Virus record (IMG/VR): IMGVR_UViG_2565956633_000006
DNA length: 13,400 nt
Strand: one strand, 5' to 3'
Source of the DNA: a virus
Taxonomy: Duplodnaviria; Heunggongvirae; Uroviricota; Caudoviricetes
In this document: positions 1-12,075 of the stretch, one piece after another
Position numbering within the stretch: the first letter of the stretch is position 1
Layout: each line of letters starts with the position of its first letter
Made by a program: the position numbers and the translations under genes
Notes under the pieces: model-generated
Told to the model about the DNA's origin: nothing
Database searches by the model: none
The model's input: only the letters and a program-made list of their open reading frames with translations

Positions 1-1284
1 TTACAGACTTCTGGAAGGTTGCGCAGCTCTTACAACACGCGGTTGATCTTCCGCGGCGTCTTCCAGCGCACTTAAATCACGGTCTTTCACTTCTGGCATT
101 TTCAGCGCAGAGATTAAACCAATCACTGAATATGCCATGATCATAATGGCGATCGGATACCAGGATTCCGTCATGGTGCAGAAAATACCCGCCAGGATAG
201 GACCAAAACCGGAAGCGATAAGACCACCAATTTCTTTAGAAATAGCCATCCGGGTAAAGCGGTTTTTACAGCCGAACATTTCTGCCATGGTAATATTTTC
301 CAGAGCAAATAATCCCAGCACCGCACAGTTATGAATCACAATCAGTGCAACCATAATGGTGCTCGGGGCATAGCTTTTATCTACGATGATAGAAAGCATT
401 GGCCATGCCAGCACAATCGCGGAGGTATTCATAATAATATACGGGATCCGGCGACCAATTTTATCGGATAACCAACCAAGGAACGGAATGGTCATAAAGC
501 CGAGAATCGAACTGATCATCAATGCATCTGTTGGAATTGCTTTGTTAAACAATAACGTCTGCACTAAATAGCCCGCAAGGAAAGTCTGAATTAAACCTGA
601 GTTACCCGCCTGACCAAAACGCAGCCCTGTTGCCAGCCAGAAGGATTTGCTCTGGAACATGCTACCAGCAGGTGCAGGTTTTGCTGTCGGTTGGTTGCTG
701 TCGTTAACCTTCTCAAAAACCGGGCTTTCTTTCAGATTCATACGCAACCAGATAGCAAAGACCATCACGACAACGCTCGCCAGGAACGGTATACGCCATC
801 CCCACGCCAGCAGTTCCTCTTTACTGAGAATGAAGAACATAAAGGCCCAGATTGCCGTTGCGCTTAAAGTTCCGCAGTTAGTTCCCATAGCCACAAATGA
901 GGAGATAATTCCGCGCTTACCTTTTGGCGCATATTCCGCCAGCATCGTACCGGCACCGGAAATTTCCGCACCTGCACCCAATCCCTGAATAATACGCAGC
1001 GTCACCAGCAAGATAGGGGCAAAAACACCAATCTGTGCATAGGTCGGTAACACACCAATTAAGGTGGTACAGATCCCCATCATGGTGATGGTAATAAAGA
1101 GCACTTTTTTACGCCCTATTCTGTCGCCCATTTTGCCGAAAATAAATGCTCCGACAATACGCGCCACATAACCTGCACCGTAGGTTCCCATTGCCAGAAT
1201 TAACGCCATTGCCGTTGATGATTCAGGAAAAAATATTTCATGAAACACTATCGCTGCGCCGAGCGAATATAACTGGAAATCCAT
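1..1284 (-). CDS. ydfJ: MFS (metabolite:H+ symporter family) transporter, N-terminally truncated at the prophage junction
   Basis: 427-aa ORF with many hydrophobic helices and GRK/R motifs typical of MFS. The product starts at MDFQLYSLG, aligning with the conserved (W)YDF..YG motif of MHS transporters, so about 25 N-terminal residues are missing. ATG at 1282-1284 has no convincing Shine-Dalgarno upstream. Stop at 1-3. Confidence 0.8.
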   Translation of the reverse strand: MDFQLYSLGAAIVFHEIFFPESSTAMALILAMGTYGAGYVARIVGAFIFGKMGDRIGRKKVLFITITMMGICTTLIGVLPTYAQIGVFAPILLVTLRIIQGLGAGAEISGAGTMLAEYAPKGKRGIISSFVAMGTNCGTLSATAIWAFMFFILSKEELLAWGWRIPFLASVVVMVFAIWLRMNLKESPVFEKVNDSNQPTAKPAPAGSMFQSKSFWLATGLRFGQAGNSGLIQTFLAGYLVQTLLFNKAIPTDALMISSILGFMTIPFLGWLSDKIGRRIPYIIMNTSAIVLAWPMLSIIVDKSYAPSTIMVALIVIHNCAVLGLFALENITMAEMFGCKNRFTRMAISKEIGGLIASGFGPILAGIFCTMTESWYPIAIMIMAYSVIGLISALKMPEVKDRDLSALEDAAEDQPRVVRAAQPSRSL

Positions 1285-1888
1285 AATTCACAGGTGTTTT
1301 TTCCCATCCTGTGGTTTCCTTGGCGTTTTCTAGGTTTTTTCAGATAGTTGCATTTTTTAAAAAGCATCCTAAGTTCGATCTCAGTGTCTATCTGGGGCCT
1401 ATTTCTGTCCCATATATGCCCCAAAAAAAACTCCCCAACAGATAAGTAGTTTTTTCATGGATTTATGCGTAAAATCAAGAACGGCTGGAAATCATTCAAT
1501 ACTCACACTATCGAAAAATTTACCAGCCAACCGCAGCACGTTCTTGCATAAGGCGTGTCTGCGGTTTTTCAACTATTCAGATACATCACTCCCATCACAT
1601 TCATTCCTCCGCATCAAAGGCATATAGGCTATATCACCTTGATATTTTTATTTTTCAGATAAAAACTGTTATCTATGTATACTTTTAAACCCAATCCGTG
1701 TAGAGTCTCTGCATAAGATAGTTTGCAGTTGCCGCTTCAGCTTGCGCCATAAACCGCCTGATTTTTGCTGCCACCTGTTAGCATTCCTGTATACCTGAAA
1801 CGACAATGTTTATCTACGAACTTTAAGAACACCCAAGATAAAAATTGTCAACTATATCATATATAACACATTACTAATTCGAGGCTAT

Positions 1889-2002
1889 ATGAACAGCATA
1901 CTGATAATCACATCTCTCCTTATCATATTCAGCATTTTTAGTCATGCCCTAATAAAATTAGGGATTGGCATATCCAATAACCCAGACAAAACCGATGTAT
2001 AA
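1889..2002 (+). CDS. Hypothetical 37-aa hydrophobic small protein ([37 protein letters not shown])
   Basis: ATG at 1889 preceded by GAGG at 1881-1884; single predicted transmembrane helix followed by a polar tail; stop TAA at 2000-2002. Below the ORF-track length cutoff; found by reading the DNA. Confidence 0.25.
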
Positions 2003-2070
2003 GTCAACATATCCTGAATCAGACATACAATATCGCAATGAAAATCAATAATATTTTAAGGAATATCTTC

Positions 2071-2304
2071 ATGAAATCAAAAGACACCCTAAAGTGGTTC
2101 CCTGCGCAGCTTCCTGAAGTAAGAATTATCCTAGGGGATGCTGTAGTGGAAGTAGCAAAACAGGGAAGACCTATCAATACCAGAACATTGCTTGATTACA
2201 TTGAAGGAAACATAAAGAAAAAATCATGGCTGGATAACAAAGAATTATTACAAACAGCGATATCAGTTCTTAAAGACAACCAAAATTTAAATGGTAAAAT
2301 GTAA
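2071..2304 (+). CDS. ydfK: Small prophage protein YdfK (YnaE paralog, cold-shock associated), 77 aa
   Basis: ORF 2038..2304; internal ATG at 2071 (MKSKDTLKWF...) has AAGGA 7 nt upstream, so 2071 is the likely start. Confidence 0.75.
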   Translation: MKSKDTLKWFPAQLPEVRIILGDAVVEVAKQGRPINTRTLLDYIEGNIKKKSWLDNKELLQTAISVLKDNQNLNGKM

Positions 2305-2620
2305 TATAATAAACTTACTTTTTTATCATTTTTCCACTTTAACAACATTTTGCTCCACTTTTCCACGACCAAACAACTTGAAATCTGGTTAAAATAACAC
2401 GCAACACTATTCTTCTTCCTTGAGTCCGCCCGGAACTCGAAAAACAAACCGAGTTAAAGCCATTTTTCACAAAATCGATTTTGGGTCTCACCAAAATTAC
2501 GGGGTTGCATACGCATTCGTTTATTTTCGAACGTGTACATACAAATATGCACAAAAATAATCAAAATTATTTTCTGAGATGCATTATGATATGAACACCA
2601 ATTTCGTATAGAGTCTCACT

Positions 2621-3211
2621 ATGTCTCGAATTTTTGCTTACTGTCGGATATCAACGCTGGATCAGACCACCGAAAATCAACGCCGGGAAATCGAAAGTGC
2701 AGGTTTTAAAATCAAACCTCAGCAAATAATCGAAGAACACATTAGCGGCTCAGCAGCAACCAGTGAGCGTCCTGGTTTTAACCGGTTGCTTGCTCGCCTG
2801 AAATGTGGTGATCAATTGATTGTGACAAAACTGGATCGCCTTGGTTGTAATGCAATGGATATCAGGAAAACAGTGGAACAACTGACCGAAACAGGTATCA
2901 GAGTGCATTGCTTAGCATTGGGGGGCATTGACCTGACCAGTCCAACAGGAAAAATGATGATGCAAGTAATTTCAGCAGTCGCTGAATTTGAACGAGACCT
3001 TTTACTTGAACGCACTCATTCCGGGATAGTAAGAGCCCGGGGCGCAGGGAAACGTTTTGGTCGACCACCTGTGTTAAATGAAGAACAGAAACAGGTGGTA
3101 TTCGAACGAATTAAGTCAGGTGTAAGTATAAGTGCCATTGCCCGGGAATTCAAAACCTCGCGGCAAACCATTTTAAGAGCCAAAGCAAAACTTCAGACAC
3201 CTGACATATAA
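2621..3211 (+). CDS. pinQ: Serine recombinase / DNA invertase (Gin/Hin/Pin family), 196 aa
   Basis: N-terminal [20 protein letters not shown] catalytic-serine motif and C-terminal helix-turn-helix ([23 protein letters not shown]), typical of Pin/Gin/Hin invertases. Confidence 0.95.
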
Positions 3212-3308
3212 AAAATAATCTCGGTGTGAGATGCTTTACGTCTTCCAAGCCACCTTCCTTGCCGTAAATGGAAAGATACATCTAATTATAGAATTTATAT
3301 GTTTTACC

Positions 3309-3884
3309 CTACGGCAGTGCTGGCCATTCAATATCCTGTGCAGTTGACGTATCAACACGGTTCAGCAATACCCGATACTTTTTCCATGCTTCCAGCAACG
3401 AGATTTCTTCCTCCGTTGCAATTTCCAGATCTGCAGCATCCTGAAGCGGCGCAATATGCTCACTGGCTACCTGCATCAGGCTGTTTTTTGTTTCTTCCGC
3501 CTCCCGGATCCGGAACAGTTTTTCTGCTTCCGTATCCTTCACCCAGGCTGTGCCGTTCCACTTCTGATATTCCCCTCCCGGCGATAACCAGGTAACATTT
3601 TCCGGTAACGGACCGAGTTCAGAAATAAATAACGCGTCGCCAGAAGCCACGTCATAAACCGTTTTACCCCGATGATCTTCAACGAGATGCCACGATGCCT
3701 CATCACTGTTGAAAACAGCCACGAAGCCTGCCGGAATATCTGGCGGTGCAATATCGATACTGTTTGCTGGCAGACCTGTATGAGGCGGAATATATGCGTC
3801 ACCTTCACCAATAAATTCATTAGTTCCGGCCAGCAGATTATAAATTTTTATGGTCCGTGGTTGTTCACTCATTCTGAATGCCAT
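3309..3884 (-). CDS. tfaQ: Tail fibre assembly protein (lambda Tfa-like), 191 aa
   Basis: Tfa-family product; start ATG overlaps the stf stop as TAATG at 3882-3886, indicating translational coupling. Confidence 0.9.
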
Positions 3885-4801
3885 TATGCAAGCCTCACAA
3901 TATAGTTAAATGCGATGTTTTTGACGGTGTTTTCCGCGTTACCAGCAGCGTTAACGGTGATGGTATGTCCATGTGAACCAATCGCAACGGAGTGCGTATG
4001 AGCACCAATACCGACAGTATGTGCGTGTGCACCTGCGCTTGCAGCAGTACCCGATACAGAGTGCGTATGAGCGCCTGCAGAAGAAGTGTTAACACTGTAT
4101 TTAGAATAATCAGGTGATCCACTTCCCGGAGCACCACTGGAACCACCTGAAACAAATGTCATCGAATGGGTATGTGCACCGGCTGAAGCAGCCGTACCGC
4201 TAACACTATGGGTATGCGCACCAGTGTTATTCGTGGATTTAGTGCCGTAATCAAACGACGATGTGGTTTTCGTCCCCAAATCCGTACTGGATACGCTGGC
4301 GCTGTGGGTGTGTGATTTAATGCCGTCCTGTTCCTGAGACAATACGGCTCGATCACTGGCGGGCTTGCCCTTAATCGTCCAGCCACGCATATCAGGGATC
4401 ACGCCTGACGGATAAGCGGCTGCAAGTTTCGGGTAAGCAGATTTGTCAAAAGTCTGCCCCTGCATCAGGGCATAACCAGACGGAACGGTATCTGATGGCC
4501 ACGGGATTGGTGCACCGACTGGATAAAACTCTGCAGGAGGATGAGCCGAGGTGTAAAGCTGCGCCCACGGCGACCAGTTTGCGTCGGTCGTATCCCGTCG
4601 TGAACGAATAAATGCCGGAGCATGAGCACCGCTTGTACCACTCCAGCCGATGAGTAACTCACCTTCGCCAACGGCTGTCATCCCTTTCAGGTGAATGATA
4701 TTTCCATACGCTGTTGGATATCCGTTGTTATACACCTCGTATAACTCAAGACCTGTTGCCCCCTGCGTATTGTCTGTCAGCGCGGTTACCCGCGTATCGT
4801 T
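3884..4801 (-). pseudogene. stfQ: Side tail fibre protein, C-terminal fragment (lambda Stf-like)
   Basis: Open frame from the stop at 4802-4804 down to the stop at 3884-3886, with no ATG near the 5' end (first start-like codon is GTG at 4733-4735, without an SD). Product carries repeated GAHTHS...[10 protein letters not shown] His-rich motifs and ends ...[11 protein letters not shown] as in lambda Stf. Confidence 0.85.
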
Positions 4802-4851
4802 TCATCGGCGCGGGCAATGGCAGCATCGAACAGGTTATCGGAATCAGCCAC
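4786..4851 (-). pseudogene. Remnant of lambda FII-like head-tail joining gene (first 21 codons only)
   Basis: GGGAGG followed by GTG GCT GAT TCC GAT AAC CTG TTC GAT GCT GCC ATT GCC CGC GCC GAT GAA ACG ATA CGC GGG TAA, i.e. [21 protein letters not shown], matching the lambda FII N-terminus ([21 protein letters not shown]) as I recall it. Start is GTG here, and the frame stops where the stf-derived sequence begins. Confidence 0.6.
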
Positions 4852-4862
4852 AGCGCCTCCCG

Positions 4863-5258
4863 TTATTGCATTCTGGCCAGGCCATGTTCTGTCATTTCGG
4901 CTGCCACACCGGCAGAGACACGAAACGCCGTTCCCGGCAGCACAAATGCCACAGGCTCATCCCGCGTGGCGTGAAGTGCATCAGTATGCAGCGTCACCAG
5001 TGCCACGACCGTGACCAGAGCAGCCGTATCAATCACGGTATCCGGCTGCGCTGATACCACCTCATTTTCATGTCCGGTCAGCGCATTTTCCGGGCTGACA
5101 GATGTGTCCTGACCGGCAGCGTCATCCGTGTCATCAAGCTCCTCTTCCAGCTCTGCCACACGGAGCACCAGTTCTTCTTTCGTCCCCGTCAGGCTGACAT
5201 CACGGTTCAGTTGCTCACCCAGCACCTGAAGACGGGCAATCAGTTCATCTTTCGTCAT
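4863..5258 (-). CDS. Lambda FI-like DNA packaging protein, 131 aa
   Basis: Product from the internal ATG at 5256-5258 (MTKDELIARLQVLGEQLNRDVSLTGTKEEL...) matches lambda gpFI; strong SD (GGAGGAG) upstream. The longer ORF-track start at 5297 lacks an SD. Confidence 0.85.
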   Translation of the reverse strand: MTKDELIARLQVLGEQLNRDVSLTGTKEELVLRVAELEEELDDTDDAAGQDTSVSPENALTGHENEVVSAQPDTVIDTAALVTVVALVTLHTDALHATRDEPVAFVLPGTAFRVSAGVAAEMTEHGLARMQ

Positions 5259-5279
5259 GGACTCCTCCACAGAGAGAAA

Positions 5280-5297
5280 ATGGCCCCGAAGGGCCAT
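5280..5297 (-). terminator. GC-rich hairpin between the E remnant and FI (ATGGCCC-TTCG-GGGCCAT on the minus strand, then TTTCTCTCT)
   Basis: Perfect 7-bp stem with a 4-nt loop, followed by a U-rich tract on the coding (minus) strand; could act as attenuator or mRNA stabiliser. Confidence 0.35.
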
Positions 5298-5299
5298 GA

Positions 5300-5866
5300 T
5301 TACGCCAGTTGTACGGACACGAACGCATCAGGATCAGCCAGCAGCATCAGCGGTGCTGACTGAATCATGGTGAACTCACGCGCCGGATCGCCGGTGGTCA
5401 CCCAGTTTTTCGGGTAGCGGGCAGAGGCGTTAATACCTTCGCGCTGTGCGTCCGCATCCTGAATGCAGCCATAGGTGCGCAGACCGCGTGCCTGAGTGTT
5501 CCCCAGCACCATCGTGTTGTCCGGCAGGAAGTTCTTTTTGACGTCGTTTTCCACGTACTGTCCGGAATACACGACGATCGCCGTATCGCCATACATCCCC
5601 TTATAGGACACCGCTTCGCCCAGGTCTTTTACCGCTGTCTCCAGCTCGGAATTAGAGCCGCGACGGGTATCCAGCTTCTCCTTGACGGCTTTGAAGGAAC
5701 GGAACAGCGCCCAGCCTTTCGGATCAAACACGATGATATTCACCACGCCGCTGGCGTTCAGCGCGTAGGCTTCGATATCGTCGGTCGGGTCATACGTGGA
5801 CTTGTCACGCTTGCTCCACTCCGTGCCGCCGGACTGCGTGATGTTGTTCGCCGCACTGCGGCCCAT
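5300..5866 (-). pseudogene. Major capsid protein (lambda gpE-like), C-terminal remnant of about 188 codons
   Basis: Product ends ...NTMVLGNTQARGLRTYGCIQDADAQREGINASARYPKNWVTTGDPAREFTMIQSAPLMLLADPDAFVSVQLA, matching the C-terminus of lambda E; the 5' half is absent and replaced by the Nu1-like gene. Confidence 0.85.
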
Positions 5867-6372
5867 ATCAGTTCATCCAGCGCGGCTGCTTTGTTCATGG
5901 CTTTGATGATATCCCGTTTCAGGAAATCAACATGTCGGTTTTCCAGTTCCGGAAAACGCCGCTGCACCGACAGGGGGATCCCGTCGAGAATACTGGCAAT
6001 TTCACCTGCGATCCGCGACAGCACGAAAGTACAGAATGCGGTTTCCACCACTTCAGCGGAGTCTCTGGCATTTTTCAGCTCCTGTGCGTCGGCCTGCGCA
6101 CGCGTAAGTCGATGGCGTTCGTACTCAATAGTCCCTGGCTGGAGATCTGTCTCGCTGGCCTGCCGCAGTTCTTCAACTTCCCGGCGCAGCTTTTCGTTCT
6201 CAATTTCAGCATCCCTTTCGGCATACCATCTTATAACGGCGGCAGAGTCATAAAGCACCTCATTACCCTTGCCACCGCCTCGCAGAACGGGCATTCCCTG
6301 TTCCTGCCAGTTCTGAATGGTACGGATACTCGCACCGAAAATGTCAGCCAGCTGCTTTTTGTTGACTTCCAT
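5758..6372 (-). CDS. nohA: Terminase small subunit Nu1 homolog with altered C-terminus (fusion to out-of-frame capsid-gene sequence)
   Basis: First ~168 aa (MEVNKKQLADIFGASIRTIQNWQEQGMPVLRGGGKGNEVLYDSAAV...) match lambda Nu1 nearly residue for residue; the tail (..WAAVRRTTSRSPAARSGASVTSPRMTRPTISKPTR) is read from E-derived DNA in another frame. Confidence 0.85.
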   Translation of the reverse strand: MEVNKKQLADIFGASIRTIQNWQEQGMPVLRGGGKGNEVLYDSAAVIRWYAERDAEIENEKLRREVEELRQASETDLQPGTIEYERHRLTRAQADAQELKNARDSAEVVETAFCTFVLSRIAGEIASILDGIPLSVQRRFPELENRHVDFLKRDIIKAMNKAAALDELIWAAVRRTTSRSPAARSGASVTSPRMTRPTISKPTR

Positions 6373-6620
6373 TGTTCATTCCACGGCCAAAAACAGAGAA
6401 AGGAAACGACAGAGGCCCAAAAGCTCGTTTTCAGCACCTGTCGTTTCCTTTCTTTTCAGGGGGTATTTTAAATAAAAACATTAAGTTACGACGAAGAAGA
6501 ACGGAAATGCCTTAAACCGGAAAATTTTCATAAATAGCGAAAACCCGCGAGGTCGCCGCCCCGTAACCTGTCGGATCGCCGGAAAGGACCCGCAAAATGA
6601 TAATAATTATCATCTGCATG
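6373..6620 (-). other. Lambda-type cos packaging site (cosN 12-nt cohesive end at 6550..6561, with cosB toward nohA and cosQ on the other side)
   Basis: Reverse complement of 6481-6563 reads GGGGCGGCGACCTCGCGGGTTTTCGCTATTTATGAAAATTTTCCGGTTTAAGGCATTTCCGTTCTTCTTCGTCGTAACTTAA, nearly identical to the lambda left end as I recall it, including cohesive end GGGCGGCGACCT. Confidence 0.8.
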
Positions 6621-6760
6621 TCACAACGTGCATCTACGCCATCAAACCACGTCAAATAATCAATTATGACGCAGATATCGTATTAATTGATCTGCATCAA
6701 CTTAACGTAAAAACAACTTCAGACAATACAAATCAGCGACACTGAATACGGGACAACCTC

Positions 6761-6994
6761 ATGTCAACGAAGAACAGAACCCGCAGAACAACAACCCGCA
6801 ACATCCGCTTTCCTAACCAAATGATTGAACAAATTAACATCGCTCTTGAGCAAAAAGGGTCCGGGAATTTCTCAGCCTGGGTCATTGAAGCCTGCCGCCG
6901 GAGACTGTGCTCAGAAAAAAGAGTTTCTTCTGAAGCAAACAAAGAAAAGAGTGACATTACTGAATTGCTCAGAAAACAGGTCAGACCAGATTGA
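6761..6994 (+). CDS. ynfO: Small ribbon-helix-helix-like protein, 77 aa (lambda right-end ORF homolog)
   Basis: Basic N-terminus (MSTKNRTRRTTTRN) followed by IRFPNQMIEQINIALEQKGSGNFSAWVIEACRRRL, which has the beta-strand/helix/helix pattern of RHH (Arc/CopG) DNA-binding domains; sits beside cos as in lambda. Confidence 0.75.
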   Translation: MSTKNRTRRTTTRNIRFPNQMIEQINIALEQKGSGNFSAWVIEACRRRLCSEKRVSSEANKEKSDITELLRKQVRPD

Positions 6995-7051
6995 AGCAAT
7001 TTAGATAATCGTGCAGACTACGCCCCCTCATATCACATGGAAGGTTTATCT

Positions 7052-7462
7052 ATGGATCAGGTAGTCATTTTTAAACAAATATTTGATAAAGTTCGAAACG
7101 ATTTAAACTATCAATGGTTTTATTCTGAGCTAAAACGTCACAATGTCTCACATTACATTTACTATTTAGCCACAGAGAATGTTCATATTGTATTAAAAAA
7201 TGATAATACAGTGTTATTAAAGGGCCTAAAAAACATTGTGTCTGTCAAATTTTCAAAGGATAGGCATCTTATAGAAACGACCTCTAATAAGCTGAAATCC
7301 AGAGAGATCACATTTCAGGAATACAGAAGAAACCTTGCTAAAGCAGGAGTTTTTCGGTGGGTTACAAATATCCACGAACAAAAAAGATATTACTATACCT
7401 TTGATAATTCATTACTATTTACTGAAAGCATCCAGAAAACTACACAGATCTTACCACGCTAA
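7052..7462 (+). CDS. ydfO: DUF1398-family protein (YbcV/YdfO family), 136 aa
   Basis: ORF 7037..7462; second ATG at 7052 ([14 protein letters not shown]...) has GGAAGG 7 nt upstream and is the likely start. Confidence 0.8.
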
Positions 7463-8460: not shown

Positions 8461-8673
8461 TCAAAGCGCCACTACATGAACAGCGGCAGGACCTTTAGGT
8501 CCGTTCTCAATACCAAATTCAACTTCCTGATTCTCAGTTAATGTTTTGAAATCGTTGCTCTGAATTGCTGAGAAATGGACAAACACATCTTTGCTGCCAT
8601 CTTTCGGCGTGATGAAACCAAAACCTTTTTCAGGGTTAAACCATTTCACTAAACCAGTCATTTTGTTAGACAT
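8461..8673 (-). CDS. cspI: Cold-shock protein CspI (CspA family), 70 aa
   Basis: [38 protein letters not shown]... with RNP1 (KGFGFI) and RNP2 (VFVHF) motifs; long leader region upstream. Confidence 0.95.
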
Positions 8674-11346: not shown

Positions 11347-11562
11347 TTAATCAGTAATGATGACATTTGCTGCTGCAGGACCTTTAGCACCACTCTCTAT
11401 AGAGAAGGTAACCTTTTGACCTTCAAATAAGGTTCGATAATTATCATTCTGAATCGCAGAAAAATGCACAAACACATCTTTACTACCATCAACAGGAGAA
11501 ATAAAGCCGAAACCTTTATCAGCGTTAAACCATTTTACTAAACCAGTCATTTTATTTGACAT
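11347..11562 (-). CDS. cspB: Cold-shock protein CspB (CspA family), 71 aa
   Basis: [38 protein letters not shown]...; AAGGA SD 7 nt upstream of the ATG at 11560-11562. Confidence 0.95.
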
Positions 11563-11862: not shown

Positions 11863-12075
11863 TTGTCCCGTAAAATGACAGGAATTGTCAAAACCTTTGA
11901 CGGCAAAAGCGGCAAGGGTCTTATCACCCCATCCGATGGTCGTATCGATGTCCAGCTTCATGTCTCAGCGCTCAATCTCCGCGATGCAGAAGAAATTACC
12001 ACCGGATTACGCGTGGAATTTTGCCGGATAAATGGTCTGCGTGGCCCTTCAGCTGCCAATGTTTACCTTTCATGA
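11863..12075 (+). CDS. cspF: CspA-family paralog CspF, 70 aa, with degenerate nucleic-acid-binding motifs; probable TTG start
   Basis: [38 protein letters not shown]...; start codon at 11863 is TTG with AAGGA 6 nt upstream; RNP1/RNP2 aromatic residues are replaced (KGKGLI, VQLHV). Confidence 0.9.

Follow-up and report, generated by a model that had tools for sequence, protein, structure and literature searches.

How a gene for a lambda-type terminase small subunit came to run into the second half of a major capsid gene is the question raised by one locus in IMG/VR virus record IMGVR_UViG_2565956633_000006, a stretch of 13,400 nt that was analysed as a whole and is referred to here as the window. 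The window is a Qin-type cryptic lambdoid prophage of Escherichia coli, inserted in ydfJ, and the junction between its Nu1-like gene and its fragment of the capsid gene E is the scar of one illegitimate (microhomology) deletion, a case of ordinary gene decay that constitutes a new Qin allele. We infer that this scar is not the product of a random slip, both of its ends being break sites that are used recurrently. The account as a whole, comprising a Qin-type prophage, a single 5,897-bp deletion, a fusion open reading frame (ORF) as a by-product and recurrent break sites, is one in which we have good confidence.

The ORF at 5758-6372 on the minus strand encodes 204 aa, of which residues 1-169 align with lambda Nu1 without gaps and with 166 identities (98%, E=8e-127), whilst residues 170-204 give no alignment to that protein. 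The product matches the PF07471 Phage_Nu1 profile from end to end (positions 1-164 of 164, E=3.5e-101, 336 bits relative to a cut-off of 30). On the same strand, the ORF at 5300-5866 encodes 188 aa corresponding to lambda E residues 154-341 (182/188 identical) and to the C-terminal half of the PF03864 (Phage_cap_E) profile (positions 147-328 of 329); no promoter or ribosome-binding site of its own was recognised for it. At the DNA level, window 5866-6561 is equivalent to lambda 697-1 (97.8% identity) and window 4787-5869 to lambda 7676-6591 (95.8%). The two parental sequences, GAACTGATA/CCGG in Nu1 and GGTGGATA/TGGG in E, have the 4 bp GATA in common, and the join unites lambda nt 697 (Nu1 codon 169) with nt 6591 (E codon 153). 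The 5,897 bp lost, lambda 698-6594, held Nu1 codons 170-181, A, W, B, C/Nu3, D and E codons 1-153. Neither the ORF list nor the alignment with lambda revealed any A-derived DNA in the window, and no insertion sequence (IS) was found in it, the overlap at the junction being short. The Qin prophage of strain PCP06021 (L002), which keeps nohA, A, W, B, C, D, E, FI, FII, Z, U and V, served as an undeleted reference: the flanks of the window are 99.6% and 100% identical to it, collinear, and 5,897 bp apart, and lambda is likewise collinear. Since the terminase large subunit, portal, protease/scaffold, decoration protein and capsid N terminus are all lost, the element is unable to package DNA or build heads.

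An initial annotation of this DNA had read 5758-5870, which proves to be the out-of-frame tail of the fusion plus the junction itself, as the second of two deletion scars, and a separate FII'::stf' junction does indeed lie nearby. Its estimate of about 168 residues of Nu1 was close to the exact figure of 169, the continuation into E-derived DNA in another frame amounts to 35 residues, and the loss that it anticipated of the terminase large subunit, portal, protease/scaffold and decoration genes is borne out by the deletion of the A-to-D span relative to lambda and PCP06021. It had proposed that alignment with lambda Nu1 and E would define the breakpoint, and this alignment sets it at 697/6591. 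The E frame was also correctly taken to encode the C-terminal part of the capsid protein, but its length is 188 residues rather than the approximately 183 suggested.

The element was typed from its ORF list and by megablast against complete E. coli genomes. Gene order and the ydfJ locus match those of the annotated 'cryptic prophage Qin' of K-12 MG1655, with ydfK, pinQ, tfaQ, stfQ, noh, ynfO, ydfO, gnsB, cspI, lysis genes, cspB, cspF and ydfT in an order common to both, and successive blocks are 98.8% (4 kb), 96.1% and 99.7% (7.5 kb, cos-Nu1 to ydfT) identical to K-12 Qin. The K-12 nohA gene (b1548, NohA 189 aa) is also a C-terminally truncated Nu1 homologue beside an intact cos; however, its Nu1 sequence extends 22 nt beyond the window's breakpoint in the 3' direction, to lambda 719 (residue 176), where it is joined directly to stf, and K-12 Qin lacks window 4789-5865 and with it the 1,083-bp E'-FI-FII' block. 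K-12 has 22 nt of Nu1 that are missing from the window, and of the two only the window has E'-FI-FII', so that no deletion could turn either allele into the other; this reciprocal retention excludes K-12 Qin as parent or descendant of the window allele, and the window is its sister.

Other decayed lambdoid prophages (the DLP12 nohD/A' remnant and those of 1303, EC26, W137, GDSC2227PM and MEI1O2-23) resemble the window in deletions that lead out of Nu1 or A and into E or genes beyond it, in keeping cos and the lysis genes, and in the shortness of their junction overlaps, but differ in having end points elsewhere (lambda 904, 1018, 1944, 2268 and others). The Qin alleles of 1303 and EC26 run from A (lambda 1944) to E (6683) and that of W137 from A (2268) to E (6542), with MEI1O2-23 passing from A (904) to E (6317). 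GDSC2227PM (L017), at the DLP12 locus, runs from Nu1 (697) to E (6681), and its Nu1 end is exactly that of the window. A much fuller Qin is present at ydfJ in PCP06021 (L002 501-26543), extending from nohA through V and including an IS3-family insertion, a J remnant, lom, full stf and tfa. The comparison shows K-12 Qin and the window to be late stages of a decay series at one locus. The stf-side end point in K-12 is the very nucleotide used by the FII'::stf' scar of the window, and because of this common end point the ends of such deletions were examined more widely.

A protein search with the fusion as query gave 120 Nu1-like proteins, dozens of which are fusions whose Nu1 part ends in AAALDELI, at residue 169, and continues into unrelated tails. 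Breaks at residues 173-176, of which K-12 NohA is an example, are few in this set. All eight fusions checked as DNA have GAACTGAT followed by E, lom (at two positions), the Z/U boundary, tfa, the portal gene, FI or host ydfJ, and two more were subsequently confirmed at the same level. Around 30 partner positions have been mapped, spread over A, B, C, E, FI, Z/U, V, I, J, lom, stf, tfa and ydfJ. Among complete genomes chosen as a spread sample, shortened copies of cos-Nu1-A were found to end at lambda 697, 699 and 701, with partners in J or tail-fibre genes, alongside others ending at lambda 427, 956, 1018, 1488, 1758 and 2194. No prior account of this recurrent breakpoint pattern was found in the literature searched on nohA/Nu1 breakpoints and prophage deletion hot spots. 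In one genome (GCA_022972485.1; L026, protein P0120), Nu1 residue 169 is in frame with ydfJ (ELI/SDKIGRRIPY), the deletion extending from the Nu1 site of the window to the chromosomal flank with loss of the whole Qin structural arm.

The partner sites are themselves re-used. The E site of the window (GGTGGA[TA]TGGG) recurs in other strains in both orientations: in PI24 (L029) a 38-bp E fragment ends at it and is joined to tfa at lambda 22102, a position that is the partner of the Nu1 site in another strain, and in a further locus (L031) it is joined to a later part of E. The PI24 region (2380-2560) is a patchwork of A (to lambda 1951), 105 bp of C/Nu3 (5243-5347), 38 bp of E (6558-6595) and tfa (22102), its first and second junctions being plain microhomologies (GATG, ATGACC) and its third joining two recurrent sites through a TA core. 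Similarly, the FII site of the window's other scar also ends the FII'::stf junction of W137, starts the FII fragment of E8 (L028), and is the partner in P0028, where the fusion lies at the stop codon of Nu1. Within stf, the site GGTCGGG[TA]ACCGCGCTG forms the right end of three different junctions: FII'::stf' in the window, with the 6-bp overlap CGGGTA; Nu1 (lambda 719)::stf in K-12 Qin, with overlap TA (L001 5341-5362); and Z'::stf' at the lambda attachment locus of PCP06171 (L015 ~4541-4551), with the 8-bp overlap TAACCGCG. PCP06171 is a sister strain of PCP06021. A spread sample over E-FI-FII-Z yielded mostly mosaic boundaries rather than deletions, leaving three usable loci or ends. As sites are used in both orientations, what marks them would seem to lie in the site itself and not in a process that travels.

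What the sites have in common is a 2-nt core. At 23 mapped junctions, a TA in the partner stands exactly opposite the Nu1 TA (lambda 696-697); the other partner cores were TG (n=6) and TC, TT and CA (n=1 each). Crosses of TA with TG have given products with either dinucleotide, those with TG encoding ELM through DNA composed of Nu1 CTGA, TG and the partner, and none of the 120 proteins was an intact Nu1 with ELM. The TA and TG products imply that the Nu1 share ends between nt 695 and 697 and that the partner starts between the core and +1. Set against 1,225 background TA sites in those genomes, four positions stand out in the 23 partner sites: G is over-represented at -4 (15/23, p=0.003) and +4 (15/23, p=0.00025), and C at +2 (14/23, p=0.002) and -6 (12/23, p=0.018). 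Junction sites hence tend to the dyad C-N-G-N-[TA]-N-C-N-G, to which the Nu1 site (CTGA[TA]CCGG, lambda 692-701; CTGATACCGG) and the stf site, a palindrome-like CGGGTAACCG, are perfect fits. The first 23 kb of lambda contain only 14 perfect sites, of which a further two, at 7044 and 15276, take part in other junctions. Sixteen junction sites that had no part in deriving the motif scored a mean of 2.44, as opposed to 1.23 for the background (P=1.2e-5), and five of seven independent ends from complete genomes fell at TA, where 9.6% would be expected (P=1.5e-4).

A second cluster of Nu1 breaks follows residue 120/121, with at least 14 different tails (P0121-P0187), mostly in the 82-84%-identical Nu1 genes of other Enterobacteriaceae. 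It lies on CGGATCGC; codons 120-121 of lambda Nu1 (TCG CGG ATC GCA) read C-G-G-A-[TC]-G-C-A-G, where the flank pattern recurs around a TC core and GATC is included.

These regularities suggest site-preferring breakage and rejoining. The simplest reading is that DNA is cut and rejoined with a 2-nt stagger at preferred sites, by way of a heteroduplex core, or that breaks arise at those sites and are repaired by end joining on TA; identical products would be expected from a fixed end mended through its final two bases. Extended to E. coli at large, and probably to other Enterobacteriaceae, the proposal would be that lambda-like prophages decay largely through a 2-nt-stagger break-and-join activity at TA (or T-N) cores in C-N-G-N-TA-N-C-N-G, with Nu1 codon 169 a near-perfect site; we advance this tentatively, as possible rather than probable. 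Several considerations weigh against the preferred-site reading itself. No enzyme among the mechanisms examined matches the pattern, and a replication pause or fixed DNA end combined with microhomology annealing could yield it too. The motif positions were chosen post hoc from 23 sites, and some of the 'independent' sites had been inspected earlier. Junctions without TA exist (GATG and ATGACC in L029, GCTGG in P0070), as do ends of homology at lambda 427, 1488 and 7316 that lack it. Most partner sites were mapped on lambda, PCP06021 and phage mEp460 rather than on the undeleted ancestor of each strain, and the protein searches were centred on Nu1, such that the prominence of the site is gauged only among Nu1 breaks.

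Gyrase provides the classical model of illegitimate recombination in lambda, and breaks made at preferred sites by DNA gyrase or topoisomerase IV, with subsequent subunit exchange or end joining, are an unlikely though not negligible source of the junctions. With its ATACCG, the Nu1 site reaches 14/28 and ranks in the top 1% of positions; the consensus for E. coli gyrase has the centre GGCGGTAT/GGGG/ATACCGCC, in which TA is flanked by GG/CC on each arm (PMC6379681 supplement). The GATC within the second Nu1 cluster is, moreover, the favoured 4-bp cleavage core of pneumococcal gyrase (PMC12630141). Yet the 16 junction sites score no better than background TA sites by a crude consensus-match score used without a position weight matrix (P=0.23), and a 4-nt stagger fails to reproduce the products, in which Nu1 extends to lambda 695 and the partner begins from +1 around a 2-nt core.

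Deletion at random positions, with slippage during replication or end joining acting on a 4-bp repeat present by chance, would make the common end points a coincidence or an artefact of the search. A 4-bp overlap is typical of illegitimate deletions, the 1303, EC26 and K-12 Qin alleles have quite different deletions, and some junctions at related loci are plain microhomologies without TA. None of this accounts for the use of a single Nu1 nucleotide position with at least 30 partners, nor for the re-use of each of the E, FII, Z and stf sites, some both ways round: the left arm of lambda has about 700 TA sites, so repeated exact coincidence is not expected. Furthermore, the conserved bases are on the partner flank and do not pair with the retained Nu1 end; as the enrichment sits on the flank that the partner retains, pairing with that end cannot explain it. 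We therefore think random deletion improbable.

An equally doubtful source is a site-specific recombinase or transposase with a 2-bp crossover acting on pseudo-sites, with serine recombinases (the prophage's own Pin, for instance) and enzymes of the IS630/mariner type as candidates. The fixed 2-nt core, the preference for core identity, the inheritance of either core where the two differ, the dyad-symmetric flanks and the use of sites in both orientations would all suit such an enzyme, and pinQ is only 2.6 kb away. Invertases and resolvases, on the other hand, are normally very strict about their sites, and no IS or recombinase gene is consistently found beside the junctions. The Din-type site on the pinQ side, CAAACC GA GTT (~2441-2466), has, by the standard of gix and hix sites, a centre and arms unlike C-N-G-N-TA-N-C-N-G, and a Pin invertase pseudo-site was accordingly ruled out. 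The same lookalike, a gix/hix-like crossover half-site of the Din family that can be read as CAAACC GA GTTAAAG upstream of pinQ, has no inverted partner within the stf remnant, and the Pin inversion system looks non-functional in what remains of it here.

Four further candidates were rejected or found no support. A hairpin or pause structure at the Nu1 site is not indicated by the folding of lambda 640-800 as DNA (z=0.44) or by any inverted repeat flanking nt 697. The in vivo motif of E. coli topoisomerase I, C(-4)-N-T-T/A (PMC9352719), with cleavage at a TA that follows a conserved C by four nt, is suggestive, but this C is one nucleotide out of register with the junction sites, and the remaining positions differ. 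The Chi-like GCTGGATG located 8 nt upstream of the Nu1 site has two core mismatches, and the partner sites have nothing comparable. Adjacent deletion mediated by an IS is discounted by the lack of any IS at or near the junctions in the 18 loci examined. Illegitimate recombination through short homologies or gyrase is known for junctions that look RecA-independent, overlaps of 0-8 bp, hot spots and prophage deletions. The junctions described here resemble it in their short overlaps, their hot spots and their occurrence as deletions in prophage DNA, but differ in the fixed 2-nt core and dyad flanks and in the lack of fit to a 4-nt stagger. The mechanisms tested do not account for the recurrence pattern.

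Selection on the product might instead have set the end of the deletion. Both cosN and cosB, together with the DNA-binding domain of Nu1, have survived. Lambda nt 1-200 are conserved at 98% mean identity, with cosN, R3, R2 and R1 all recognisable, and the sole change in cosN and the cosB R elements is a G-to-A beside R3 (window 6509, lambda nt 54) that is also found in K-12 Qin and PCP06021. This substitution falls just outside bp 55-63, the segment reported to be contacted by the small terminase subunit (TerS). Lambda TerS consists of a winged helix-turn-helix (wHTH) DNA-binding domain at the N terminus, with its recognition helix at 17-24 and wing at 31-39, a central oligomerisation domain, and a C terminus that binds the large subunit (TerL); the last 40 residues are protease-sensitive, and losing 30 impairs TerL binding (PMC9026076). 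Residues 1-68 and 1-98 of the fusion match the solved DNA-binding domain structures 1J9I (E=3.9e-39) and 6HN7 (E=1.8e-58), and residues 1-47 are identical to lambda, leaving helix and wing unchanged. The breakpoint at residue 169 is far from this domain, which the initial annotation had supposed to be preserved and had regarded as the place where a junction would overturn its reading. If expressed, the N-terminal domain of the fusion would thus still be able to bind cosB. The TerL-binding tail is incomplete, 12 of some 40 C-terminal residues being gone (alignment ending at 169/181) and 28 kept. Compared with lambda gpNu1, the protein shows 98% identity over 1-169, the full Phage_Nu1 profile, the wHTH domain and the same upstream layout of cosN and R3-R2-R1, but has 35 unrelated residues in place of 170-181; and whereas lambda A, encoding TerL, overlaps the end of Nu1, no TerL gene lies downstream in the window, so no terminase can form.

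The truncated Nu1 could on this basis have been domesticated as a cosB-binding decoy that hinders packaging by lambda-like phages, an idea we hold to be very improbable. The DNA-binding domain and oligomerisation region are whole whilst part of the TerL-binding tail is lost, and Rpp, a TerS-like protein of phage-inducible chromosomal islands (PICIs) that lacks the TerL-binding tail, can block helper packaging (PMC9026076). The two are alike in being small helix-turn-helix proteins with a TerS-like role and no complete C-terminal TerL-binding segment, Rpp having none (PMC9026076), and 6HN7 holds the lambda-type TerS domain; however, Rpp is a dedicated, conserved island gene with demonstrated function, and the window protein is a truncation with an arbitrary tail. 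Cryptic-prophage Nu1 and cos can also be functional once recombined into lambda, since the DLP12 cos-Nu1 region can be picked up by an infecting lambda and works there (PMC3945230). Against this, the single-nucleotide precision of the end is beyond what selection can give, the tails after residue 169 vary between strains and are arbitrary, both in and out of frame, many alleles keep the whole of Nu1 or break within A, and the searches turned up no expression data. Given such precision and such arbitrary tails, the common end point cannot be put down to selection for a truncated Nu1 that still functions, and the high identity to lambda reflects recent phage ancestry. The fusion ORF is probably a by-product, a pseudogene, and the preserved cos-Nu1(1-169) block is, in view of the DLP12 case, at least a reservoir for recombination.

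Whether the junction exists at all was also considered, the initial annotation having named a sequencing artefact at 5758-5870 as a possible objection. The matches on either side of it go far beyond chance. The window is 100% identical to contig KI522548.1 of GCA_000485735.1; at least 14 contigs carry a gene for the identical 204-aa product, and the 76-nt junction sequence is exact in eight loci from independent NCBI assemblies and Logan runs, all in a Qin context, with the FII'::stf' scar also present wherever those contigs extend far enough. The contiguous junction was found in none of 5,426 complete E. coli genomes, which makes it a rare allele, yet a real one. A chimeric contig merging two prophage copies can be dismissed: although E. 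coli genomes hold several lambdoid prophages with near-identical cos-Nu1 that are able to confuse assemblers, and the complete genomes lack the junction, it is exact in eight independently made assemblies or runs, its 4-bp overlap is far below the k-mer of any assembler, and analogous junctions at the same Nu1 position are seen in complete genomes.

The arrangement of the window is given in the table below. Three cold-shock paralogues, cspI, cspB and cspF (8461-8673, 11347-11562 and 11863-12075), are present within the prophage, cspI and cspB being 73% identical as DNA. The stf remnant (4173-4788) is only 96% identical to K-12 stfQ (L001 4726-5341), compared with 99-99.7% for the flanking Qin DNA, and its 5' part (4558-4786) matches mEp460-type fibres at 99-100%, unlike the stf of PCP06021 or 1303. 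The sequence comparison indicates that tail-fibre modules have been exchanged inside the Qin lineage.

Table. Features of the window (positions in nt; lambda coordinates where stated)
Feature	Position	Strand	Details
Truncated ydfJ	1-1284	-	ORF list
ydfK	between ydfJ and pinQ
pinQ	2621-3211	+	ORF list, Pfam
tfaQ	3309-3884	-	ORF list, Pfam
stf' remnant, C-terminal part of side tail fibre	3884-4792	-
FII'::stf' scar, other junction of the window	4787-4792	-	FII' (lambda 7676) into stf-internal site; 6-bp overlap CGGGTA
FII' remnant, first 65 nt of FII	4787-4851	-
FI, complete, 131 codons	4863-5258	-	stranded between both scars
E-derived DNA (lambda 6591-7160)	5300-5869	-	E-frame ORF 5300-5866 = E residues 154-341
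Out-of-frame tail of Nu1-like ORF	5758-5865	-	35 codons + stop, read from E-derived DNA
Deletion junction GATA	5866-5869	-	lambda 694-697 in Nu1, 6591-6594 in E; 2-nt core TA at 5866-5867
Nu1-derived coding DNA, codons 1-169	5866-6372	-	wHTH DNA-binding domain, oligomerisation region, 28 of last 40 residues
cosB region	6373-6549	-	R3-like near 6509, R2 near 6448, R1 near 6408, then Nu1 ribosome-binding region
cosN cohesive-end sequence GGGCGGCGACCT (lambda nt 1-12)	6550-6561	-	exact 12-mer
Lambda right-end sequence including cosQ region	6562-6600
ynfO, ydfO, gnsB, cspI, lysis genes, cspB, cspF, Q-like ydfT	rightward of cos

Taken alone, the scar is one more allele in the known series of Qin and lambdoid remnants, and it provides the K-12 nohA::stfQ junction with a sister form that retains E'-FI-FII'. 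Its wider interest lies in the independent deletions that, in many strains and at different prophage loci, end at the same nucleotides, with a 2-nt core and dyad flanks. Should a specific activity prove to be responsible, the 'grounding' of prophages would be channelled by defined sites rather than proceeding by random erosion. This would explain why many cryptic prophages end their packaging module at Nu1 codon 169, keeping cos and a truncated Nu1, and would help to predict which modules survive, such as cos, the lysis genes and the tail fibres; it would also supply a sequence signature by which such events might be recognised in other genomes.

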